Sequence record: MT446422.1
Source: Escherichia virus TH57
Direction: 5' to 3' (one strand)
Length of the DNA: 64,000 nucleotides
The position numbers and the translations under genes are program-made. Positions 1 through 47,184 of the stretch are shown here, piece by piece (within the stretch, counting starts at the first letter, position 1; each line of letters begins with the position of its first letter). The notes below the pieces were generated by a model. The model made no database searches. It was given only the letters and a program-made list of their open reading frames with translations, and had not been told where the DNA came from.

Positions 1-44
1 CATCTTAATTACAAGCGTTACGCCTGTCAACTAAATCACGATAA

Positions 45-66
45 CAAAAAACCCCCTTTCGGGGGC
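45..66 (-). terminator. Rho-independent terminator downstream of the methyltransferase gene
   Basis: Plus-strand A-run followed by CCCCC-TTTC-GGGGG hairpin; on the minus strand this reads as hairpin plus T-run just after the ORF ending at 108. Confidence 0.5.
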
Positions 67-107
67 GGGTCATAGTCAACCGCTTTAAACCAGCTTGCCG
101 TTGCAAG

Positions 108-809
108 TCAGAGATCGTCGAACGAGCTAATCCAGACTCTACGATCTTCCTGGAAGGCAGGCAAGCGCGGCGCACCTAATTCACGCAGACGGTCGCGGTG
201 GATAGCCAGCACCGGCGGCGCGCCTTCTTCATTGCGGCGGTGGAAATGACGTGAGAAGATCAGCAGCGACGAGGCGAACCCGGACGACTGAGGTTTCACA
301 CCGTTGGCCCACACCGGCAACTGGAAGGTGATGCGCCCTTTGATATTGAAAATGCAGTCTGCAGGGAAGTCGGATAACTCGTCAGGCCACCAGCTTTCGC
401 TAGGGGCGTGCTTCGTCAGCAGGCAGATATTTGCGCCGTTGTCGCGCTCCTCCTTCACCTTCGCCATGATATTCAACATCCCGGTGTACGGCTCATCGTC
501 ATGCTCAAACGGACGGCTGTACGGTGGGTTGCCGTAACACCATGCGCCAGCGCCACCGTATTTCAGGGAGTCGCCATGCCAGTCCTGCACCAGCGCGTTG
601 TTTGCCTGGCTGTAGTAGTGGTCGCATTTGGAGTTCTGCCCGTCGGTAAACAGGTCCAGCGCGAACCGGCTTCCGTTGGTAACGAACGCCTCGATGCCAC
701 AAAACTCCAGGTCAGGCGTGCGCCACTGGTCCCCGATCTCTTTGAGGTCGTGAAAGTCCTGCATCTTAATGTCGATCAGCTTTTCCAGGTATGGATTCAT
801 CCGGCTCAT
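108..809 (-). CDS. DNA N6-adenine methyltransferase, phage Dam-like family
   Basis: Track ORF 108..854; NPPY catalytic motif (CYGNPPYS) plus WRTPDLEF and SKCDHYY blocks typical of phage Dam-type MTases; start moved to internal Met (residue 16) that overlaps the stop of the upstream ORF; GC-rich unlike the phage backbone. Confidence 0.55.
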   Translation of the reverse strand: MSRMNPYLEKLIDIKMQDFHDLKEIGDQWRTPDLEFCGIEAFVTNGSRFALDLFTDGQNSKCDHYYSQANNALVQDWHGDSLKYGGAGAWCYGNPPYSRPFEHDDEPYTGMLNIMAKVKEERDNGANICLLTKHAPSESWWPDELSDFPADCIFNIKGRITFQLPVWANGVKPQSSGFASSLLIFSRHFHRRNEEGAPPVLAIHRDRLRELGAPRLPAFQEDRRVWISSFDDL

Positions 810-1051
810 TGACCACCTGCCAGTTTTGCAAGGCGCTCCTCTAACTGCCACCATTCCTGTTTACGGGCATCCGCGCCGCACTGCATGATGTCCACCCGGC
901 ACGGCAGTTTGGTGAGCGTCACAAAGATGCGATTCTCATCGCTGCCGCCTTTGCGGATGATGGCGGTCTGTGCGGCCCACGCCAAAGTGAGCGTCGGGTG
1001 GTTCTTAACCTTGTGCTCGATGCGCTCGCGGAAAGTGATGAAGTTCCCCAT
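806..1051 (-). CDS. hypothetical protein (GC-rich module, coupled to the methyltransferase)
   Basis: 81-aa ORF, same strand and same GC-rich composition, stop overlaps the downstream MTase start; no recognisable motif. Confidence 0.35.
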   Translation of the reverse strand: MGNFITFRERIEHKVKNHPTLTLAWAAQTAIIRKGGSDENRIFVTLTKLPCRVDIMQCGADARKQEWWQLEERLAKLAGGQ

Positions 1052-1068
1052 TAATCTGTTACCCCGTA

Positions 1069-1629
1069 TTGCTTTTTAAGGTCGTCGAGTGCGATCTGCA
1101 GCAGTTGCATCTGGTAGACCGCCTCCCCGTTTTTTTCGAAAAGCTTAGTGATAAGTACACTCTCAAAGAATTAACGTTAATATTCATGTCAAACCTGGTC
1201 GCGAACCAGGATGCATGGATAGGCGATATAAGTGATGCCGATGCTCTGATATTTTATAGGGAATACATCGGCAGACTTAAAAGAATTAGACAAGTATACG
1301 AAGATGATATAAAGAATATCTATTACTTCAGTAAGAAAGTCGAAGTCAAATCGCTTCAAGAGATTTTCGAGTATAATACTAAAGTGAATACAAGTTATAT
1401 TTTCAAACTTCTCCAATCGAATGTTATCTCATTTGAAACGTTTTGTTTGCTTGATTCATTTTTAGATATTATAAATAAACATGATGAACAGACTAACGAC
1501 TTGGTTTGGGAAAAGTATTCAACCAAACTAAATGCCTATAAGAAAATCTTAAATATCGATTCTCTTGAAGCTCGTAAATTGTTCATCGAGACCGTTAAAA
1601 ACTGTCAAATAACGCTTCAAGCACTTTGA
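1069..1629 (+). CDS. 59: gene 59 helicase-loader homolog, N-terminally truncated; possible pseudogene
   Basis: Immediately upstream of gene 32 on the same strand as in T4; AT-rich phage-like sequence and gp59-like sequence (KLSDKYTLKELTLIF, SNLVANQDAWIGDISDADALIFYREYIGRL, as recalled from T4 gp59, not database-checked) begin only at ~1120; track ORF starts with TTG at 1069 inside GC-rich DNA, first ATG at 1186; at most 186 aa versus 217 aa in T4. Confidence 0.5.
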   Translation: MLFKVVECDLQQLHLVDRLPVFFEKLSDKYTLKELTLIFMSNLVANQDAWIGDISDADALIFYREYIGRLKRIRQVYEDDIKNIYYFSKKVEVKSLQEIFEYNTKVNTSYIFKLLQSNVISFETFCLLDSFLDIINKHDEQTNDLVWEKYSTKLNAYKKILNIDSLEARKLFIETVKNCQITLQAL

Positions 1630-1637
1630 AGTATAAT
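1613..1637 (+). promoter_or_regulatory. T4-type middle promoter for gene 32 (MotA-box variant CGCTTCA, 12 nt, TATAAT)
   Basis: MotA-box-like CGCTTCA followed 12 nt later by TATAAT, ~55 nt upstream of the gene 32 ATG, inside the 3' end of gene 59. Confidence 0.5.
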
Positions 1638-1689
1638 TAATACGTAATCAAAACAACTGCTAAAAATCAAATAATCTAAGGAAAATCAT

Positions 1690-2601
1690 ATGTCTATGTT
1701 TAAACGTAAAAACCCTGCTGACCTGGCTGCTTCCCTTAACGCTCTGAAAGGTGGTTCTGGTTTCTCTTCTGACGATAAAAAAGAATGGAAACTGAAAGAT
1801 ACTGATGGCGTCGGTTCTGCGGTTATTCGTTTCCTGCCTTCCAAAAATGAAGAAAATCCATCTCCGTTCATCAAGCTCGTTAATCACGGCTTTAAAAATG
1901 GCGGTCAATGGTATATTGAAAACTGTACTTCTACCCACGGCGATTATGAAAACTGCCCTGTGTGTGCGTACATGAATAAGAATGACCTGTACAACACAAA
2001 CGAATCCGAATATCGTAAACTGAAGCGTAATACTTCTTACTGGGCTAACATCCTGGTCATTAAAGACCCTGCTGTTCCGTCTAACGAAGGTCAAGTATTT
2101 AAATATCGCTTCGGCAAGAAAATCATGGACAAAATTAACCAGATGGTTGAAGTCGATGTTGATATGGGCGAAACAGCTATTGATGTAACTTGTCCTTTTG
2201 AAGGTGCAAACTTTGTACTGAAATCTAAACTGGTTTCCGGTTATAAAAACTACGATGATTCCAAATTCATGAACCAGTCTGAAATCGCTGGTATCAATGA
2301 TGAAGCATTCCAGAAAAAACTTTGGGACGAAATGTCTGACCTGAATGAATTGCTGGTGTTTAAATCCCTTGAAGAGAATCAGAAGAAATTCTCTAAAGTA
2401 ATGGGTACAGCTGCTCTTGGTGGTGCTGCTTCTAAAGCCGCTGCACAAGCTGATAAACTGGGCGCTGACCTGGACGATTTTGATAAAGATATGGAAGACT
2501 TCACTTCCAGCAAACCTGCTAAGTCTGAACGCACTGCGACTGCTCCAAGCACTCCAGAGCCTTCTGATGATGGTCTTGACGACCTGCTGGCTGGCCTTTA
2601 A
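1690..2601 (+). CDS. 32: single-stranded DNA-binding protein gp32
   Basis: 303 aa; N-terminus [61 protein letters not shown] and acidic Asp/Ser-rich C-terminus closely match T4 gp32; strong SD AAGGAAA. Confidence 0.95.
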
Positions 2602-3828: not shown

Positions 3829-4056
3829 ATGGCTAAAGTTAATATTGATATTGTTGATTTTGAATACACTTACGAAGTTATCCGTAATCGTTATCCTTCT
3901 TTGAGTATGACTTATATTAAAGATACCCAATTCTTCAGTATCCAAATTGAAATCCAAGGTCCTCTTGAAGACCTTACTCGTTTTATGACTGACGAGTATT
4001 GTGATGGTATGCATGTTGAAGATGCTGAATTTTATATGGGCTTAATCCAAAAATAA
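3829..4056 (+). CDS. hypothetical early protein
   Basis: 75-aa ORF with SD GAGGAAAA 7 nt upstream. Confidence 0.45.
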
Positions 4057-4058
4057 AT

Positions 4059-4093
4059 GTTTACAACAGGCTATGGTAATGATACTATAGCCT
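4059..4093 (+). promoter_or_regulatory. T4-type early promoter with dyad symmetry across the -10
   Basis: GTTTACA, 17 nt, TACTAT; inverted repeat AGGCTAT...ATAGCCT. Confidence 0.45.
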
Positions 4094-4114
4094 TACCAAC
4101 TTGAGGAGAATAAA

Positions 4115-4354
4115 ATGAAATTACAACGTGAGAGCATCAAAGATTCAGAAGTTAAAGGTAAATGGTACTTCACAATCCAGGGTAACAATCCAGAAGCTCT
4201 GGAAAAAGCTGAAGAAACTTTGTGTGCAATGGGTTGGAAAGATGAGTGTGATGGTTGTCCTCTTTATGAAGATGGTAGCTCATCTGGTTTCTGGATTCAT
4301 CACTCTGACGTTGACCAATTTAAAGCTGACTGGAAAGTCGCTAAGAAAGCGTGA
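4115..4354 (+). CDS. hypothetical early protein (Cys-containing, 79 aa)
   Basis: ORF with SD GAGGAGAA. Confidence 0.45.
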   Translation: MKLQRESIKDSEVKGKWYFTIQGNNPEALEKAEETLCAMGWKDECDGCPLYEDGSSSGFWIHHSDVDQFKADWKVAKKA

Positions 4355-4364
4355 GGAAAATAAT

Positions 4365-4724
4365 ATGTCCGACATTCATGTAACCGGAATTACCCAAGTA
4401 AGAATTCATTGCCAACTTAAAACTGCACCCGGGATGGCTTATATTAATTTATCACATGACCTAGATTCTCGCGAAAGTCTGTTAACTGGTGTAATTACGT
4501 TTTACACTGGAATCGGCGGAAACGAATTTACTGTAGGCGAGATTGTTGGTCATAAATTAAAAGTTCAGAAGAACGTGTTAGAACTTTTTAATGACCTTTA
4601 TGATGATAGCGATGAAGTTTTTGATGAAATCACACAAGCAGTTAACAAAGGAATGGTAACTTTAGTTAAAATGATTAACTCTATTGGATATGCTCCTGAC
4701 CCTTTTCGATGGGAGATAATATAA
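4365..4724 (+). CDS. hypothetical early protein
   Basis: Track ORF 4128..4724; start placed at Met 80 (MSDIHV), which has SD GAGGAAAA. Confidence 0.45.
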   Translation: MSDIHVTGITQVRIHCQLKTAPGMAYINLSHDLDSRESLLTGVITFYTGIGGNEFTVGEIVGHKLKVQKNVLELFNDLYDDSDEVFDEITQAVNKGMVTLVKMINSIGYAPDPFRWEII

Positions 4725-4816
4725 TTTTTGTATTTGAGTTTATGAATGATGAATTCTATTATGCAATGCTTTAAAAATTGTATAGTCTTGATTTAAATGA
4801 ATTTGAGGAAAATATA

Positions 4817-5154
4817 ATGCTTACTGAATACACTTGCTTTGCTAAAGATGATGCACATCCTGAACTGATTCTTGAAGTTAAGGTTAATACGCTTGAACAA
4901 AAATTTGATTGGAGCCTTTACATCTATCCTAAAAATATTATTGATGGTCCACAGAAATATACGCTTAATGACAAGTGCATTAGTGGTATCATTGGATATG
5001 GTACAAGTGGAAGCAAGTATTCATTAGAAGATATTCGTCAATCTCGTTGTGCGGTATCATATTTTGATACAGATATAATTAAACATCTTTATAAATTGGT
5101 TCTTGATATTCGCAAAGATTTTACTGCCATCAAAAAGGCAACTAAGGAATTAAA

Positions 5155-5158
<4 letters not shown>
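4817..5158 (+). CDS. hypothetical early protein
   Basis: Track ORF 4778..5158 begins at TTG; ATG at 4817 follows SD GAGGAAAA. Confidence 0.45.
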
Positions 5159-6817
<1,659 letters not shown>

Positions 6818-39221: not shown

Positions 39222-40355
39222 ATGGCTTATACCGTAGATATTGCTCCTTTGGCGGCCACAGCCGTTATTGGAGCAACAACCAATTTCACTGCGACCGGTT
39301 CCGGTGCTGCAGCTGAAGGTACCGAATCATTTGTTTGGACCGTTGATGGCGTTCCTCAATCTTCTGTGACTGCTGCAATGGATTATGTTGCTGTTGGTCC
39401 AGCAGGCAGTAAGACTATTAAAGTTGTTGCAACTACCACTCCGGCAGACGGCGAACCAGAAACTGCTGAGGCTGAGACAACTTTAACTATCCAGAATAAA
39501 ACAATGCCGGCAATCACGCTGACTTTAGACCCAGCCTCTGTTACTAAAGAAATAGGACAATCTCAAGTTGTTACAGCTAATATTAGCGGGCAACCAGATG
39601 GAGCGTCCGCTTCTTATGTATGGAAACGAAATGCTGACGTAATCCCAGGGCAAACTGGTAAAACAATCACCATCACCGAATCGGCTGAAGCAAATTATAC
39701 ATTGAACTGTGAAGTTACTGTTTCAGCAACAGATTATGATAATGGCACCGCAACTAAAAGCGCAGTAGTTACCTTTGTTAAGAAAACTATGTCAGGTGTT
39801 TCTGTTACATTAACCCCAGAATCAATTAATGTTCCGGAAGGTACCCCGGCTTCTTTTAAAGCGGATGTAGTCGGCGCACCTAGTGGAGCTACTTTTGCCT
39901 ATTCTTGGAAGAAAGATGGTTCTCCTGTAGTTGGCACCACGGATACTCTAGCAATCGACACAAGCACCGAAGGTTCCCAGGTTATTGAAGTTTCTGTTGT
40001 GGTTTCGGCGACTGATTATGACCCGGCGACTGTCACAAAAACCGGTAATGTAACAGTCACGGCTAAAGTCGCACCAGTTCCAGATGGCGAATTACCTTAT
40101 GTTCATCCATTGCCGGTACGTAATTCAGCTTATATCTGGTGTGGTTGGTGGGTTATGGATGAAATTCAGAAAATGGCTCTTGCCGGGCAAGACTGGAAAA
40201 CCGATGCCCCAGATAGCCCATATTATTTGCACCGATACACACTTCAAAAAATGATTACCGACTATCCAGAGGTTGATGTACAAGAATCTCGTAATGGTCG
40301 AATTATTCATCGCACCGCTTTAGAAGCTGGTATTATATACGATTACGTTTATTAA
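39222..40355 (+). CDS. hoc: highly immunogenic outer capsid protein Hoc (Ig-like repeats)
   Basis: 377 aa; repeated Ig-like modules; C-terminal capsid-binding region ELPYVHPLPVRNSAYIWCGWWVMDEIQKM matches T4 Hoc. Confidence 0.85.
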   Translation: MAYTVDIAPLAATAVIGATTNFTATGSGAAAEGTESFVWTVDGVPQSSVTAAMDYVAVGPAGSKTIKVVATTTPADGEPETAEAETTLTIQNKTMPAITLTLDPASVTKEIGQSQVVTANISGQPDGASASYVWKRNADVIPGQTGKTITITESAEANYTLNCEVTVSATDYDNGTATKSAVVTFVKKTMSGVSVTLTPESINVPEGTPASFKADVVGAPSGATFAYSWKKDGSPVVGTTDTLAIDTSTEGSQVIEVSVVVSATDYDPATVTKTGNVTVTAKVAPVPDGELPYVHPLPVRNSAYIWCGWWVMDEIQKMALAGQDWKTDAPDSPYYLHRYTLQKMITDYPEVDVQESRNGRIIHRTALEAGIIYDYVY

Positions 40356-40992: not shown

Positions 40993-41018
40993 TGCTTCAA
41001 ATAAAAATGCGGTATAAT
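40993..41018 (+). promoter_or_regulatory. T4-type middle promoter (MotA box TGCTTCA) upstream of rnlB
   Basis: TTTGCTTCA, 13 nt, TATAAT, followed by conserved GGTTCTAGACCC. Confidence 0.55.
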
Positions 41019-41114
41019 GGTTCTAGACCCTTTGTGACTATTAATTCCTTTCAGAGAAAGAAAGTATAGTGGGTCTAATTTATAATGATATTTATAACAT
41101 CAAAGTGAGAGATT

Positions 41115-42122
41115 ATGTTTAAAAAATACAACAGCCTTGAAAATCACTATAACAACAAGTTCATTGAAAAGATTCGTCTACAAGGCTTCACCAGCGGTGA
41201 ATGGGTAGCTCGTGAAAAGATTCATGGTACCAACTTTTCACTAATCATTGAACAAGACAATGTGACATGTGCGAAACGCACTGGACCTATCCTGCCTGCA
41301 GAAGATTTCTATGGATATGAAATTGTATTAAAGAACTATGCAGATTCTATTAAATCTGTACAGAAACTTTTGCAGGATATTAATTACCAGTCATATCAGA
41401 TTTATGGCGAGTTTGCTGGTACAGGTATTCAGAAGAATGTTGATTACGGTGATAAAGATTTTTATGTATTTGATATCCGCGTTACTAAGGAAGATGGCTC
41501 TGAATCCGTCCTGACTGACACACTTATGGAAGCCTTCTGCATTATTCATAAGTTTAAAGTTGCTCCGCGCCTGGCTACCGGAAGCTTTGAAGACCTTATT
41601 AAGCTCCCTAATGACCTGGATTCTGTGGTCCCTGATTACAATTTTACAGTGGATAACGCAGGATTGACTACAGCAAATACCACTGATTTTGATGCAAAGG
41701 TGGAAGGTAAAGTATTCACTGCTGAAGGATTTGTATTAAAACCTGATGTCCCTGCCTGGTTACCTAACGGCGAGCGTGTAGCGATTAAATGTAAGAACTC
41801 TAAATTCAGTGAAAAGAAAAAGTCTGATAAGCCTATTAAGGCTGCTGTTGTGTTGTCCCAGGAAGACCTGGATATTTTATGGAAGTTCACTGATTATGTG
41901 ACTGTTAACCGCATCAATAATGTTATCAGTAAGATTGGGGAAGTATCGCCGAAGGATTTTGGGAAGGTAATGGGTTTGACTGTCCAGGATATCCTGGAAG
42001 AAGCGGGTCGTGAAGGCCTTGAATTAACCCAGACGGAAAATCCTGTTGAAGTTAAAAAGCAACTTATCGCAAATGTAAGAGAAACATTAAGACATGTTTG
42101 GATTGCATTAATTAGTGAATAA
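41115..42122 (+). CDS. rnlB: RNA ligase 2
   Basis: 335 aa; [19 protein letters not shown], nucleotidyl-transferase lysine motif [30 protein letters not shown] match T4 Rnl2. Confidence 0.9.
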
Positions 42123-42150
42123 AAAGGGCCGCAAGGCCCTTATTCTTTTT
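42121..42150. terminator. Bidirectional hairpin terminator between rnlB and the gene 24 paralog
   Basis: A-run, GGGCC-GCAA-GGCCC, T-rich run. Confidence 0.6.
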
Positions 42151-43423
42151 CCAGTGGTGGAAGTTTAACACCAAGATAAGAACTCAATTGGCTTTGGTTG
42201 GCCATCTTATCCATATCAGCTCCATCAATAATGCGAGCTTCTTTATCATCTTTAGCAACCGTGTAAGGGTTCGCTGTCAATGCATAACGAGCTAACAGTG
42301 CAACCGTAGGCTGTAAGCTTTCAGGGTCAACAATAACCTTGAATTCCCCAACCGAGGTATCACCCTCATCATCAACTTCGCTAAGCCCTTCCGTATAAGG
42401 CGCATAATACAAAGATGCGACCGTCTGACCCTCGCCCATATCCGCATTTACACCAACAATAACATAATCGCATGGACTATTCATATCTGCATAAAGAGGC
42501 AAACCGTTCTTCAGAACACCATAGGCCAATTCATCCTGGTCTTCCTTTTTCTCAACCCAACCAGAAGCGGCTAAAATAGCTGCACAACGGGAAGAAGCAA
42601 CCGCATATGTACCAGCAAACGAAGTCTGACGTTGAACTGCAGAATTCATTTCACACATATAATAATACAGGGTTCGTGCGCGGTCCTGTGCGTTATCATA
42701 TTTCGGGTCAGTGAGATTCAACACACCTTTTTCAGAAACACCTTGGACCTTGAAGCGGGAACTAACAGTAATAAGGGATTGCAATACATCCTTATTAATT
42801 TCCTCTGCCATTTGAATGCCGAGAATATTATCGATGAAGTCTGTTGCATCGAAACCGTTTGCTTCCAGGTCCTGGGCAAGCTCGACAGTTAAAGAAGTTT
42901 TCAACTTTCTGGATTTAACTTCAGTCTGCCATTTATCGATACGGAAACCAGCTTCAGCAATTTCAGGATGCCCCTTTTCAAATTTATCAGTGAAAGCAGC
43001 ATCTGACATCATTCTTATATGTCCAGCAGCAATGGCTTCAGAAATAACTTCACCTAAATCAGTTTCGAGTGTCCCGGCAAAGGGAGAAGCTTCCAGAACT
43101 TTGAATACAACGCTTTCAAACTGAAACATATCGCCGACTGCATAAGCTTCGTCTTTGTTCGTAAATTCTGGGATATTCTTACGCTCGAACATACCAATCT
43201 GGCCCGCGAATGTTGCTCCACCGAGATAAGTCATTTTATCATCTGGGTTCAGAACACGAACACCATACAGCGCTGCAACAGGCTGGGTAGTTTTCTGTTC
43301 GGCCACGAGTGCTTTAAAAATTCGTTTATTCGTAGCCTGGGTATAAGAAAGCAAATTAGGACGGGCGACCTGGTTGGCCGCCGTTAATGTTGATTCATGA
43401 ATTAGTGCATTAATCTTTTGCAT
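42140..43423 (-). CDS. capsid vertex protein gp24 paralog (divergent second copy)
   Basis: 427 aa, gp23/gp24 fold family; shares blocks with the adjacent copy (KSRKLKT.LTVELAQD.EANGF, EINKDVLQSLITVS, YAPYTEGL, LARYALTANPYTVAKDDKEARIID) but is more diverged from T4 gp24. Confidence 0.75.
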   Translation of the reverse strand: MQKINALIHESTLTAANQVARPNLLSYTQATNKRIFKALVAEQKTTQPVAALYGVRVLNPDDKMTYLGGATFAGQIGMFERKNIPEFTNKDEAYAVGDMFQFESVVFKVLEASPFAGTLETDLGEVISEAIAAGHIRMMSDAAFTDKFEKGHPEIAEAGFRIDKWQTEVKSRKLKTSLTVELAQDLEANGFDATDFIDNILGIQMAEEINKDVLQSLITVSSRFKVQGVSEKGVLNLTDPKYDNAQDRARTLYYYMCEMNSAVQRQTSFAGTYAVASSRCAAILAASGWVEKKEDQDELAYGVLKNGLPLYADMNSPCDYVIVGVNADMGEGQTVASLYYAPYTEGLSEVDDEGDTSVGEFKVIVDPESLQPTVALLARYALTANPYTVAKDDKEARIIDGADMDKMANQSQLSSYLGVKLPPLEKE

Positions 43424-44704
43424 TTACGCCTCATAAATGATTGGCGGAAGTTTAACACCGAGCAGATAAGACATGTTGCTCTGACCGGCCATTAAATCCA
43501 TATTGGTTGCATCGATAATACGAGCTTCTTTATCGTCTTTAGCAACGGTGTAAGGGTTGGCTGAAAGTGCATATCGAACCATCAAGGAGATAGATGGCTG
43601 CAAGCTGTCTGGGTCCACAATGACCTTAAACGCACCTACGTGTTCTTCATCATCTAAGTCCAGGCCTTCGGTATAAGGAGCATAGAAGATTGAGCCTACG
43701 ACTTCGTTTCCGCCGTAATTTTCTTTAACGCCAACGGTTACATAATCCAATGGACTGTTAACATCACAGAATACAGGGAGGCCATTAATCAAATAACCGT
43801 ACGCTGTTTCAGGAAGCCATTGTTCATCTTCTGGTTTATGTTTCAGCCACCCAGAACCGGCCAGCATAGCAGCAACACGGCTAGAGGCAACAACAAAGGT
43901 ACCGGAATAAGATGTAGTTTTCTGAATTTCGGAGTTCATTTCGCAAACCAGTTCATACAGTTTACGTGCGCCTTCTGGAGCTGCATCATATGTTAAATCG
44001 ATGGTGCCATTGTCAGAAACGCCAGTTACTTTATAACGCTTGGAAACGGTAATAAGAGACTGAAGAACATCTTTGTTAATTTCATCTGCCATAATAGTAG
44101 CAAGCAGGTCTTCCAGGAAAGCAGGAGCATTAAAGCCATTTGCTTCCATATCCTGAGCAAGTTCAACAGTTAATGCAGTTTTCAATTTACGGGATTTAAC
44201 AGGAGCATTCCATTTATTAACCTGGAATACAGCATTGCTAATTTCAACATCACCGGCTTCGAATTTTTCGGTGTGTGCAGCATCAGGAACTAAACGAATA
44301 GTCGATGCAATAAGACCTTCTTGCAGAACATCAGATAACACTGTTTCTGTGGTCGATGCAAATGGATTATCAACCAGAGCTTTATAAACGATATTCTGGA
44401 ATTTAATGTATCCGCCTTTAGCTACGGCCTGAGTTGGGGTTGTAAATTCCGGAATAGTTGTACGGTCTTTTGAACCAACTTCACCACCATAAGTAGCACC
44501 AGTCTGGAAACTGAATTCATTATCAGGAGTAAGATATTTAACACCGTACAGAGCCGCAACTGGCTGGTTAGTACGTTGTTCAGCGATAATATCGCGGTAA
44601 ATCAATTTGGTTGTAGCACGGGTCAAAGCAACAAGATTCGGGCGGCCCAAGGAGTTGCTGGTAGTAATAGTTGACTCGCGCAGTAATTTGTTAATCTTTG
44701 CCAT
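43424..44704 (-). CDS. 24: capsid vertex protein gp24
   Basis: Start at Met 14 (MAKINKLLRES as in T4); close match to T4 gp24 throughout. Confidence 0.9.
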   Translation of the reverse strand: MAKINKLLRESTITTSNSLGRPNLVALTRATTKLIYRDIIAEQRTNQPVAALYGVKYLTPDNEFSFQTGATYGGEVGSKDRTTIPEFTTPTQAVAKGGYIKFQNIVYKALVDNPFASTTETVLSDVLQEGLIASTIRLVPDAAHTEKFEAGDVEISNAVFQVNKWNAPVKSRKLKTALTVELAQDMEANGFNAPAFLEDLLATIMADEINKDVLQSLITVSKRYKVTGVSDNGTIDLTYDAAPEGARKLYELVCEMNSEIQKTTSYSGTFVVASSRVAAMLAGSGWLKHKPEDEQWLPETAYGYLINGLPVFCDVNSPLDYVTVGVKENYGGNEVVGSIFYAPYTEGLDLDDEEHVGAFKVIVDPDSLQPSISLMVRYALSANPYTVAKDDKEARIIDATNMDLMAGQSNMSYLLGVKLPPIIYEA

Positions 44705-44744
44705 TTGCGCTTTCCTTTTGTGATATACTTTATTTATTCCCAAT

Positions 44745-44769
44745 AAAAAAGGGACTCCGAAGAGTCCCT
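44745..44769 (-). terminator. Rho-independent terminator downstream of gene 23
   Basis: Plus-strand A-run then GGGACTC ... GAGTCCC; on the minus strand hairpin plus T-run. Confidence 0.6.
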
Positions 44770-44784
44770 GAAATTTATTAAGGA

Positions 44785-46344
44785 TTAAATTCCCTTAACA
44801 TATACACGTCTAAAGTAACCGTTCAAGCCGAGGCTGTTAACGATGTCCGGCATGCCGTTCTGAATGCGCTTGGTCGGAGCCTGAGCAGCAGGGTCAGCAA
44901 ACGGGTTGATACCGATACCGTAACGGGTTTTGAAGCCCATAACCGGCTGGAAGTTTTTCGGGTCAGAGCCACGCAGCGGGGTCAGTGCAACATATGGTGC
45001 GTAGTAGATACCAGCATCCATTTCGTTAGCGCCTTTGTAACCGATGGTGAAATAGTCTGCACGAGCATACTGGTCGATATAGACACGGTATTTGCCACCC
45101 AGAACACCGGCGAACACAGCTTTAGTGGTATCAACGTTGAAACCTTTACCCAGACCCTGAGCAGCATAACTAACAGAAGTATCAACAGCAGCCAGTACGT
45201 TAACTACGTTACGGGAAGCGATGATGAAGTTACCTGCACCACGACCGGTCTGACGAGCGATTTCAGCGGCTTCTTTATCAATCTGGAACAGTAAAGCTTT
45301 GAAGCTTTCACCAGCCCAACGAGCACCACGGATATCAATCGGGTCCTGGAAGTCAAACACACCAGCTTTAGCGCCAACGGTGTTGGTCATACCAGATTTA
45401 CCAACCTGTGCGGAGTAGTTAATCCAATCGATAACTTCACGGTTGATTTCCAACATAATTTCGGTAGCCAGAATACCACTCAATTCGGCATCAGCATCCA
45501 TACCGTGAACAGCACGCAGGTCCTGTGCCAATTCGATAGAGTAGCTTGCTTTCAGCTGGCGAGATTTAGCTTCGATAACTTGTTTATCGATACGGAAGCC
45601 CATTTCGTTCCACGGGTTATCAGAGGAACCGTTAAAACCTTCTTGAAGTTCGGCGATAGAGGTAGCCATACCTTCAGCCAGTTCAGCCAGTTTGCCAGCT
45701 TCGAGCAGTTTGGTAACTTCAGCATCCAGTTTAGCAGCGTCAGTAGCGCCAGCATCAACGGTTACAGCTTCAACAGCCTGGAAGTGCGCGGAACCGGTTG
45801 CTTCGAAGAAGTGAGAATAAATTTTACCAACTTCCAGAACTTTGCTTGCAGCCAGAGCTTCAAAAGTCTGAGCAGCGCCCTGACCAGAGAACATAGCGTT
45901 CGGAGCATACATCGGGTGGAAAGCTTCTTTAGCACCGGCAGCTACAGGGTCTTTACCGTAAACTGCGCGCAGGGCAAATACCTGGCCAGTCGGGTTGTTC
46001 AGAGGCTGTACGCCACAAATATCAAACGCAATCAGATGCGGGATAGCACGACGAACCATGCCCATAACTGCCGGCCCAATCTGAGTTACTGCACCAGAGG
46101 TCTGGCCAGCAGCGATATTGGTAGCATCATAACCATGGTCACCACCGATTTCAGCTTCGGTCAAGAAAGAACCAAATGCTTCGGAGATTTTTTCGTCACG
46201 ATATTCAGGAGCGGTTAGAATATCTTGTTCCTGGTTTTCAAAGATTTTAGCGATGATAGCTTGTTTGGAAGCACCAACGATTTCCGGAAGAGCTTCGTTT
46301 TCCAACAGAGCGGACCATTTTTGAACTAATGCATTCTTTTTCAT
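44785..46344 (-). CDS. 23: major capsid protein gp23
   Basis: 519 aa; extended match to T4 gp23; locally higher GC and biased codon use typical of a highly expressed gene. Confidence 0.95.
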   Translation of the reverse strand: MKKNALVQKWSALLENEALPEIVGASKQAIIAKIFENQEQDILTAPEYRDEKISEAFGSFLTEAEIGGDHGYDATNIAAGQTSGAVTQIGPAVMGMVRRAIPHLIAFDICGVQPLNNPTGQVFALRAVYGKDPVAAGAKEAFHPMYAPNAMFSGQGAAQTFEALAASKVLEVGKIYSHFFEATGSAHFQAVEAVTVDAGATDAAKLDAEVTKLLEAGKLAELAEGMATSIAELQEGFNGSSDNPWNEMGFRIDKQVIEAKSRQLKASYSIELAQDLRAVHGMDADAELSGILATEIMLEINREVIDWINYSAQVGKSGMTNTVGAKAGVFDFQDPIDIRGARWAGESFKALLFQIDKEAAEIARQTGRGAGNFIIASRNVVNVLAAVDTSVSYAAQGLGKGFNVDTTKAVFAGVLGGKYRVYIDQYARADYFTIGYKGANEMDAGIYYAPYVALTPLRGSDPKNFQPVMGFKTRYGIGINPFADPAAQAPTKRIQNGMPDIVNSLGLNGYFRRVYVKGI

Positions 46345-46365
46345 GTGTTGTATAACCTTATTAAA

Positions 46366-47184
46366 TTAAGAAATTCGTGATGCTGCGAGAGCAGACAAGT
46401 CCGCAAAGGACAGGGTAGGCTTGGTGCCTTTTTCTTCAACTGCTTCTGAAATGTAATTCAGTGCCGCAGCATCGTCTACATTTTTATTTATAGCGGCTTC
46501 GGTGATTGGTTTGTCGGTGGCTTCTACCTGACCTTTAACCATTTCAACGATAGCGCCAATTTTGGTACCGAATGCATCAGAGTATTCCATGCCTTCTACC
46601 AGAGAACCAACTTTTTCTTTTTGAGATTCAGTCAGGTCTTTAGTCGCTTCAGTCAACGCAACTTCACGTTGGACATAATTGATATAAGCATCACGCTTAG
46701 CAACTTCTTCGAACAGATTAGCGGTTTCTTCTTTCTGTTCAGCCAGTTCTTCCTGCATTTCTGCAACAACATCAACAGATTCTTCTGGAACAACAACGTT
46801 GTGCTCAACGAACAGTTCTTTCATGCCGGTGAACATGGATTCGAACAGGTCGGCTTTAATGCCACGGTCGACAGCCAGTTTATTTTCAGCGAGCCATTCT
46901 TTAGCAACGTGGTCCAGGAATTTAGCTGCAGATTCTTTCAGTTTTTTCTCTGCTTTTTCGTCGGCTTCTTCTTTATTCTTTTCGACTTCTTCTTCAGCTT
47001 TTTCAGCGATGGCGTGAATGTGAGATTCTGCCAGTTTGATGGCGTGTTGCTTGACGGTAGCTTCGAATACAGTGCCGAAGGTAGCTTTCGCTTCCGGGGA
47101 CAAATTAACTGATTCGAAAATACTATCAAGAGCAACGGAAGCATCGATATTCTGAGCTTCAGAAATGAGTTGTTCTTTAAGCAT
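46366..47184 (-). CDS. 22: prohead core scaffold protein gp22
   Basis: 272 aa, highly charged Glu/Lys/Ala-rich helical composition; synteny. Confidence 0.85.
   Translation of the reverse strand: MLKEQLISEAQNIDASVALDSIFESVNLSPEAKATFGTVFEATVKQHAIKLAESHIHAIAEKAEEEVEKNKEEADEKAEKKLKESAAKFLDHVAKEWLAENKLAVDRGIKADLFESMFTGMKELFVEHNVVVPEESVDVVAEMQEELAEQKEETANLFEEVAKRDAYINYVQREVALTEATKDLTESQKEKVGSLVEGMEYSDAFGTKIGAIVEMVKGQVEATDKPITEAAINKNVDDAAALNYISEAVEEKGTKPTLSFADLSALAASRIS

Follow-up and report, generated by a model that had tools for sequence, protein, structure and literature searches.

Gene 24 exists as a conserved pair of capsid vertex protein paralogues in Escherichia virus TH57 and related T4-like phages

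In T4-like phages, the capsid vertex protein gp24 arose long ago by duplication of the major capsid gene, gene 23, and can be replaced through gp23 "bypass24" mutations (PMC3012670, PMC10580926). T4 gp24 loses 10 N-terminal residues by cleavage, and 55 subunits of gp24* occupy 11 vertices in essentially one conformation throughout (PMC9546572). Amino acids 11 to 20 of T4 gp24 touch the neighbouring hexamer, while amino acids 26 to 29 form a pairing with the I-domain linker of the next gp24* subunit; amino acids 60 to 81 belong to I-domain linker 1 (PMC9546572). A single gene 24 is present in about 1300 of 1417 records, comprising T4 and most Tevenvirinae, and about 106 phage records from four genera (Dhakavirus, Gaprivervirus, Gelderlandvirus, and Marfavirus) carry a pair. 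The RB69 annotation gives os as another name for T4 gene 24. At a cutoff of at least 80% identity, the second copy matched 106 records and the first copy 92; the first copy of Marfavirus is approximately 72% identical to that of TH57 and falls below this cutoff. The double gene 24 is already described in deposited genomes, as 24a/24b in JS98, 24(1)/24(2) in VR7, "capsid vertex protein I/II" in VR20, VR25, and VR26, and gp108/gp109 in Salmonella phage S16, and the pair is annotated in the CF-SP2, F48, and Marfa records as well. A literature search found no paper that deals with the second gp24 or with what it does, and no direct evidence for either product in virions of a phage with the pair. 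The abstract of the 2004 JS98 paper (J Bacteriol) reportedly refers to a "gene 24 duplication in JS98." A claim of novelty for the duplication fails because the pair is common and previously described in the phage group, which the original prediction itself had named as grounds against it.

We analysed a window of 64,000 nucleotides from Escherichia virus TH57 (record MT446422.1), a VR7/JS98-like coliphage (Gaprivervirus). The head-module genes in the window are ordered 20-67-68-21-22-23-c1-c2, where c1 and c2 denote copies 1 and 2 of gene 24. Gene 23 (44785..46344, minus strand) encodes a major capsid protein with 98% identity to gp23 of VR7 and JS98 and 85% to that of T4, and it is a more distant paralogue of both copies. 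Directly downstream lies c1 (43424..44704, minus strand; 426 amino acids, ATG at 44704), which encodes a canonical T4-like vertex protein and is the orthologue of JS98 24a and VR7 24(1). The TAA stop codon of c1 (43424-43426) abuts the ATG start codon (43421-43423) of c2 (42140..43423, minus strand; 427 amino acids), a derived paralogue orthologous to JS98 24b and VR7 24(2), and rnlB is the convergent neighbour beyond c2. In JS98 (Dhakavirus) and VR7 (Gaprivervirus), the two genes likewise lie between gene 23 and rnlB, their order and orientation unchanged, with 89 to 96% identity for c1 and 96 to 99% for c2, and with the same abutting codons, ribosome-binding site, and terminator layout. The same pair is found in S16 (gp108/gp109, Gelderlandvirus) and in Marfa and F48 (Marfavirus). 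A longer c1 reading frame with a TTG start, extending to 44743, was rejected as an artefact of mechanical ORF listing because it spans the Shine-Dalgarno and promoter-like sequences. Antisense reading frames within c2 (42632..42892 and 42816..43124, plus strand) were without support, and sigma-70-like sites were below chance expectation.

Both copies are full-length members of the gp24 family. Pfam PF07068 (Gp23) covers each of them end to end (E about 1e-97 each), and BLASTP aligns c1 with c2 over their full length at 57% identity (E=1e-176). Against T4 gp24 (PDB 1YUE), c1 scored 647 bits end to end and c2 scored 498 bits over residues 1 to 424. Similarity to gp23 is far weaker, with T4 gp23 chains reaching only 45 to 51 bits against either copy and the window's own gp23 sharing 28 to 29% identity with them in its C-terminal part. 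The product of c1 is 95.8% identical to VR7 24(1), 89.2% to JS98 24a, and 69.6% to T4 gp24. For c2, the corresponding values are 98.6% for VR7 24(2), 95.8% for JS98 24b, 84% for the S16 type, 80% for F48, and 55.5% for T4 gp24. These results bear out the original prediction of two adjacent minus-strand genes of the gp23/gp24 family, the upstream one T4 gp24-like and the downstream one a diverged paralogue. The predicted gp24 fold of both copies is not in doubt, because they share 55 to 70% identity with a solved structure. A PDB search returned no structure of the c2 type, and the best matches were T4-type gp24 at approximately 55% identity. T4 gp24 (PDB 1YUE; capsids 5VF3, 7VRT, and 7VS5) has the same length, cleavage motif, and position downstream of gene 23 as both copies. 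The T4 maturation-cleavage motif is kept at the N terminus of c1 (MAKINKLLRE/S), and c2 (MQKINALIHE/S) keeps the L/I-x-E motif at residues 8 to 10, as do all c2 orthologues (LIQES, LIRES, and LIHES); in T4, the gp21 protease cleaves gp24 at this motif. Both copies are gp24-like in size and have a predicted 10-residue propeptide, in contrast to the 65-residue propeptide of gp23.

The arrangement of expression signals shows what is predicted to be a single late transcription unit, consisting of the gene 23 terminator, a late-promoter-like element, c1, c2, and a closing terminator. Just past the gene 23 stop codon is an intrinsic-terminator-like hairpin (44750..44769, minus strand; 8-bp stem with 5 G-C pairs, followed by TTTTTTATT), and a terminator is annotated at the same position in the Marfa record. 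A T4 late-promoter-like element, AATAAATA (44731..44738, minus strand), lies 26 nt 5' of the c1 ATG and has one mismatch, at the first base, to TATAAATA, which is present exactly at the homologous site in VR7, JS98, S16, Marfa, and T4. Because of this mismatch, transcription of c1-c2 in the window may rely partially on read-through from gene 23. The Shine-Dalgarno sequence of c1, AAGGAA (44712..44717, minus strand), was read from the sequence, and the surrounding AAGGAAAGCGCAATG block is conserved in VR7, JS98, S16, and Marfa. The Shine-Dalgarno sequence of c2, GAGG (43429..43432, minus strand), is located within the last codons of c1. In a comparison of the c1/c2 junction across eight genomes, GAGG or GAGC and the abutting or overlapping stop and start codons were kept in VR7, JS98, dhabil, CF-SP2, S16, F48, and Marfa, and the Marfa record has a ribosome-binding site annotated at this junction. 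No separate late promoter for c2 was found, the sole near match being inside c2 itself; c2 must therefore be co-transcribed with c1. A bidirectional terminator-like hairpin (42124..42141; 7-bp stem with 5 G-C pairs and T-runs on both strands) closes the c1-c2 unit on one strand and rnlB, which converges on it, on the other, and a terminator is likewise annotated past the second vertex gene of Marfa. An Rfam scan of 41000-46500 gave just subthreshold matches, on the terminator hairpins.

The relationship of the two copies was examined with gp24 sequences in a neighbour-joining tree of Kimura distances (500 bootstraps, bipartition counting). Both copies are gp24 and fall into separate clades, each with 100% support and with congruent internal topology. 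The c1 clade grouped with T4/RB69/KM16/Entb43/PEi20 (99% support), and c1 and c2 were monophyletic in 0 of 500 bootstraps. The distance between them is comparable to that between gp24s from different genera, and the stem branch of c2 is long (0.20). The nucleotide identity between c1 and c2 is 61%, with dS saturated, and their amino acid identity is 56 to 57% in all four genomes compared. The longest nucleotide run common to both is 14 nt, and no gene conversion or concerted evolution between c1 and c2 was detected in the four genomes. These comparisons show that the pair is old and that both genes, their order unchanged, have been inherited together from before the split of the four genera. 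Of the predicted tandem duplication, the two tandem paralogues stand, but a local or recent event does not, given the co-inheritance in four genera and the failure of the copies to group together in the bootstraps.

Across both copies, dN/dS was 0.02 to 0.07, indicating strong purifying selection. Between the window and VR7, the values were 0.060 for c1, 0.027 for c2, and 0.065 for gp23, and between the window and JS98, they were 0.052 for c1 and 0.019 for c2. The constraint on c2 is slightly stronger than that on c1, and the c2 frame is intact in every genome examined. The original prediction suggested that two vertex proteins may alter the composition of the vertex or provide a backup; selection of this strength on each copy speaks against a backup that could be dispensed with, as it does against a copy in decay.

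The two copies differ markedly in their lineage-fixed changes, defined at sites invariant across all other Tevenvirinae gp24 sampled. There are 25 clade-fixed substitutions in c2 and 1 in c1, while 152 alignment columns are invariant in all copies. T4, with its single gene 24, has none of the 25 substitutions that c2 carries at these subfamily-invariant positions. On this pattern, c1 is the copy that has retained the ancestral gp24 character, and c2 is the derived one. Ten of the 25 changes are at T4 positions 25, 26, 27, 32, 34, 36, 39, 56, 57, and 68. The c2-specific changes thus cluster in residues 25 to 68, which in T4 comprise the intrapentamer beta-pairing segment and the I-domain linker with which it pairs. 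In T4 numbering, positions that tell the copies apart include 25 to 27 (VAL in c1, LSY in c2), 34 (L in c1, R in c2), 57 (Y in c1, V in c2), and 415 (L in c1, Y in c2).

We consider it probable, at roughly 0.6, that the locus is a conserved two-gene vertex cassette of the JS98/VR7/S16/Marfa group in which c2 encodes a further functional vertex subunit, with homopentamers of its own. Both proteins would be made late in infection and would serve as pentameric vertex subunits in prohead assembly. Separate homopentamers are the most likely arrangement because the c2 changes cluster in the segment that pairs neighbouring pentamer subunits in T4, and it is on this placement in the T4 structure that the proposal is based. 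The 11 nonportal vertices would then be a mixture of two pentamer kinds. Since T4 gp24* has essentially the same conformation at all vertices, it is not obvious why the capsid structure would require two vertex proteins. The pair can be likened to gp23 and gp24 themselves, as another tandem duplication of the capsid fold with one copy specialising (PMC3012670, PMC10580926). However, gp23 and gp24 (28 to 29% identity) have known distinct places, in hexamers and pentamers, respectively, whereas any division of place or function between c1 and c2 (57% identity) is putative.

A different reading, which we regard as unlikely, is that c2 encodes a conditional alternative vertex protein, the "backup" of the original prediction, able to build all vertices and favoured by temperature, by the host folding machinery, or by a host defence that recognises gp24. 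Every recognisable gp24 feature is retained in c2, and its closest single-copy relative, gp24 of the Klebsiella phage JD18 (Jiaodavirus; 64% identity, 73% bootstrap support for grouping with c2), has no second vertex protein beside it in its phage, so a c2-lineage protein is able to fill the role unaided. In addition, the authors who described the VR phages reportedly termed them low-temperature phages, but the pair is equally present in S16, JS98, and Marfa, for which we know of no low-temperature reputation. Moreover, c2 is co-transcribed with c1, is translationally adjacent to it, and lacks a separate promoter, and its expression is therefore not obviously conditional. A constraint at least as strong as that on c1 would also be unusual in a spare.

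JD18 gp24 is nearer to c2 than to c1 over alignment columns 121 to 360 in a sliding window. Its N terminus is canonical, and at 14 of the 25 c2-specific sites it shows the ancestral state. This profile is suggestive of a clean c1/c2 chimera produced by unequal crossing-over, but a simple two-piece model was unsupported because c2-type and ancestral states interleave along the sequence. The pair itself may stem from a duplication in the shared ancestor of the four genera with later acceleration of c2, from an older duplication followed by differential loss, or from the uptake of a JD18-like gene.

If c2 is a second vertex subunit as we propose, the paralogues might build geometrically distinct vertex classes on the prolate head, such as the apical vertex versus the ten off-axis vertices or a portal-proximal versus a distal ring. 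This extension is speculative, and we doubt it. If true, it would make the way in which a prolate head distinguishes its vertices accessible to genetics; to our knowledge, there is no earlier case of position-specific penton proteins in a tailed phage, and it would be the first.

It is quite improbable, in our estimation, that c1 and c2 co-assemble as mixed pentamers with a hybrid composition at every vertex. The single predicted transcript for both genes would suit such co-assembly, and the 152 invariant columns point to conservation of the core fold and of many contacts. However, a fixed two-component stoichiometry is incompatible with five-fold symmetry. In addition, the c2 changes flank both sides of the contact between the N terminus and the I-domain linker (25 to 27 and 56 to 68), which resembles co-adaptation of c2 with c2.

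We give equally little credence to the suggestion that c2 has left the vertex role to become an assembly factor, a prohead-only component lost at maturation, or a host-acting nonvirion protein. The long stem branch of c2, a burst of substitution followed by tight conservation, is often a pattern of neofunctionalisation. Against this, c2 keeps at full length and with few short gaps the I domain, both linkers, and the C-terminal region, including the strongly conserved NPYTVAKDDKEARIID, and it retains the gp21 cleavage motif with no added protein part. The idea that the tandem copy is recent and specific to this phage, or is decaying towards loss, has nothing but the tandem arrangement in its favour and can practically be dismissed given the low amino acid and nucleotide identities at saturated dS, the orthologues of each copy in four genera with congruent trees, and, against a pseudogene, the dN/dS of 0.02 to 0.03 and the intact frame of c2.

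As a discovery, the double gene 24 is minor, being a signature of a well-sampled T4-like group that includes phage therapy and biocontrol candidates (JS98 and S16). What is added here is that the pair is old and vertically co-inherited, that the second copy is the derived one and is constrained at least as strongly as the canonical gene, and that its fixed changes concentrate at what in T4 is an intrapentamer subunit contact. The role of c2 is a legitimate and cheaply testable question for specialists in T4 head assembly. The window also differs locally from its relatives: it does not have the approximately 360-bp segment between gene 23 and c1, with a small opposite-strand reading frame (JS98 orf173/VR7ORF190c), that is found in Dhakavirus and Gaprivervirus relatives, and its late promoter differs at the first base from those of JS98 and VR7, while the vertex genes themselves show no comparable difference.

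Two neighboring minus-strand ORFs related to capsid vertex gene 24 are flanked in the ORF listing by gene 23 (44785..46344, minus strand) and rnlB, the convergent RNA ligase 2 gene (41115..42122, plus strand). The upstream copy, c1 (43424..44704, 426 aa from ATG), is on the gene 23 side, and the downstream copy, c2 (42140..43423, 427 aa), is on the rnlB side. With names taken from annotated relatives, the head module has the standard T4 order (portal gp20, gp67, gp68, gp21, gp22, gp23, c1, c2), and past the pair are rnlB, 24.2/24.3-like small genes, hoc, inh, and uvsW. c1 and c2 show 57% identity along their full length (E=1e-176), and gp23 is 28 to 29% identical to either copy in the C-terminal part only. 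Both copies match Pfam PF07068 end to end and align end to end with the T4 gp24 crystal-structure sequence 1YUE, at 647 bits for c1 and 498 bits for c2. The original prediction of two adjacent minus-strand genes of the gp23/gp24 family, with the upstream one T4 gp24-like and the downstream one diverged, is therefore confirmed as written. The mechanical ORF listing also contained a TTG-initiated c1 (43424..44743, minus strand, 439 aa). The TTG start at 44743 was rejected, as its 13 additional codons are Shine-Dalgarno and promoter-like sequence and the annotated orthologues all use the ATG matching 44704.

The closest DNA to the locus by megablast was that of Escherichia phages TH54, CJ20, 212, UPEC07, VR20, and others (95 to 97% identical), with vB_EcoM-VR7 at 93% and JS98, Bp7, and VR5 at about 85%. 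A 25-kb query gave the same neighbors, and the window thus represents a VR7-type coliphage (Gaprivervirus, Tevenvirinae). Both copies are named in deposited records, as "24a" and "24b" (gp24 head vertex protein) in JS98, "24(1)" and "24(2)" in VR7, "capsid vertex protein I" and "II" in VR20, VR25, VR26, and CJ20, and gp108 and gp109, "similar to gp24 head vertex protein," in Salmonella phage S16; Salmonella phage CF-SP2 and Klebsiella phages F48 and Marfa have two "capsid vertex protein" genes apiece. Using c2 as the tblastn query, gp24 homologues were found in 1417 phage records, 106 of which hold a c2-type gene at least 80% identical, and among the rows sampled, two match sites per record were confined to phages with a c2-type gene. 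The c1 query reached at least 80% identity in 92 records, with Marfavirus c1 at about 72%. By these counts, the pair occurs regularly in four genera, Gaprivervirus, Dhakavirus, Gelderlandvirus, and Marfavirus. The duplication is real and correctly described, ordinary in its lineage, and already known from database annotations, so that its presumed novelty does not hold. In the literature searched, which lay outside the original JS98 papers, we found neither a discussion of a second gp24 nor a test of the function of c2. New here are only how the two copies evolved and where the c2-specific changes fall.

A neighbor-joining tree (Kimura distances) was constructed with gp24 from 16 loci and the window, and bipartitions were counted over 500 bootstrap replicates. 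In all duplicated genomes, c1 fell into one clade (100%) and c2 into another (100%), with the same branching in both: Gaprivervirus with Dhakavirus, then Gelderlandvirus, then Marfavirus. The identity of c1 and c2 inside one genome was 56 to 57% in all four lineages, and their longest common nucleotide run was 14 nt, so by these two measures there is no concerted evolution between the copies. The clades, their matching branching, and this independence indicate that the pair is older than the divergence of the four genera and has been co-inherited ever since. c1 grouped with the single gp24 of T4, RB69, KM16, Entb_43, and PEi20 (99%), c2 was placed on a long stem branch (0.20) beside the single gp24 of Klebsiella phage JD18 (73%), and a joint c1 and c2 clade appeared in 0 of 500 replicates. 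The deep placement of c2 could be too deep through long-branch effects. A distance tree of the 16 loci and the window cannot separate three origins: the common ancestor may have duplicated the gene, with c2 then changing in a burst; the duplication may be older, with differential loss in other lineages; or a JD18-like gene may have been captured.

We defined clade-fixed sites as columns in which one paralogue clade has a fixed residue and the other clade, together with five single-copy Tevenvirinae gp24s, has a different, invariant one. There were 25 such sites for c2 and 1 for c1, so that c1 is the conservative, ancestral-type gene and c2 the derived one. JD18 gp24 (locus L004, 2501..3781), the single copy of Jiaodavirus, has an intermediate or mosaic look. 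Over its first 90 residues it is canonical (80% identical to c1 and 52% to c2), whereas alignment columns 150 to 360 are nearer to c2 (72 to 75%) than to c1 (60 to 71%), and of the 25 c2-specific sites, 6 show the c2 state and 14 the ancestral one. This pattern may bear on the source of c2.

In the least saturated comparison, that of the window with VR7, dN/dS was 0.060 for c1, 0.027 for c2, and 0.065 for gp23; with JS98, it was 0.052 for c1 and 0.019 for c2. Among duplicated genomes, c2 was conserved more than c1 in most comparisons (78.9% and 72.6%, respectively, between the window and Marfa), and the reading frame was intact in every copy examined. A decaying duplicate is excluded by the low dN/dS and intact frames, a dispensable spare copy is unlikely, and as far as sequence can tell, both genes are functional. 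Divergence from JS98 across 42140..46344 was uneven, with amino acid identities of 97.9% for gp23 (dS 0.50), 89.2% for c1 (dS 1.24), and 95.6% for c2 (dS 1.82), which suggests that a recombination boundary separates gene 23 from the vertex genes.

By their expression signals, the two genes form one late operon, in which c2 expression is coupled to c1 expression. Directly 3' of the gene 23 stop lies a GC-rich hairpin with a T-run (44750-44769, minus strand), followed by the late-promoter-like AATAAATA (44731-44738, minus strand), AAGGAA, and the c1 ATG; the homologous place in VR7, JS98, S16, Marfa, and T4 has the exact late promoter TATAAATA. No exact or one-mismatch late-promoter motif was found within c1. 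The c1 stop runs straight into the c2 start (TAAATG), with GAGG five bases upstream, a junction design kept in all eight genomes compared, and a bidirectional hairpin (42124-42141, both strands) closes the unit. The Marfa record is annotated with a matching layout (terminator, RBS, CDS, RBS, CDS, terminator).

c1 and c2 are thus two intact, constrained, and co-transcribed gp24 genes with asymmetric divergence. Ten of the 25 c2 sites are at T4 positions 25, 26, 27, 32, 34, 36, 39, 56, 57, and 68, and over positions 25-68 all other gp24s are 72 to 85% identical to each other but only 42 to 52% identical to c2. In the T4 capsid cryo-EM structure, upon expansion, residues 26-29 of gp24* make a parallel beta interaction with an I-domain linker of the neighboring gp24* within the pentamer, residues 11-20 extend onto the adjoining gp23 hexamer, and I-domain linker 1 includes residues 60-81 (PMC9546572). 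The fixed changes in c2 thus affect both sides of a contact within the pentamer. The I domain (roughly residues 82-142) had the greatest variability in every comparison, as expected of a surface protrusion. The 10-residue propeptide of T4 gp24 is cut off by gp21 at an L/I-x-E motif (PMC9546572), and this motif is kept at residues 8-10 in c1 and c2. Both products would be cleaved by gp21 and would serve as vertex subunits of the prohead and capsid. From the changes on both contact partners, we infer that c2 subunits may be co-adapted to c2 neighbors and would form their own, separate homopentamers; rival readings are that c1 and c2 share mixed pentamers or that c2 is a conditional alternative vertex protein. 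The 55 gp24* subunits of T4 are conformationally alike over all 11 vertices (PMC9546572), which speaks against two vertex proteins being structurally necessary. A non-vertex role for c2 is a further rival reading. JD18 has no vertex protein other than its gp24, the nearest single-copy relative of c2, which supports the competence of c2 as a vertex protein.

The spacer between gene 23 and c1 (44705..44784) is only 80 bp in the window, whereas in VR7, JS98, and the phages most closely related to the window (TH54, CJ20, and others) it is about 360 bp longer (compare 4158..4594 in extracted locus L001 and 4178..4593 in L002) and contains a small opposite-strand ORF (JS98 orf173/VR7ORF190c). The junction of this length difference coincides with the late promoter's first base, AATAAATA in the window and TATAAATA in the relatives. 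The content of this spot differs among other phages: T4 has segD, IME341 has a homing endonuclease, RB69 has two tiny ORFs, and Acinetobacter phage Meroveus has a nuclease/acetyltransferase gene, so that the spot is an insertion/deletion hotspot. No gene is present in the spacer between c2 and rnlB (42123..42139) in the window, VR7, JS98, or T4. Comparison of this spot with loci L017 (5086..5649), L006 (3802..4365), and L013 (3804..4367) showed a gene named DprA-like by RefSeq between the vertex gene(s) and rnlB in Gelderlandvirus (S16 and CF-SP2) and Proteus phage phiP4-3, with a truncated form in Klebsiella phage F48; JD18 and Entb_43 have an unnamed ORF of similar size there. The Hoc-like outer capsid protein (39222..40355, plus strand, 377 aa) is longer than the annotated JS98 hoc, whose record coordinates span 849 nt, and has visible repeats (…VSATDYDNGTATKSAVVTFVKK… and …VSATDYDPATVTKTGNVTVTAK…) that would fit Ig-like domains in tandem. 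The left end of the window has an uneven base composition, with a GC content of 0.47 in 1..2000 and 0.36 in 4001..6000; elsewhere it is about 0.40 to 0.44.
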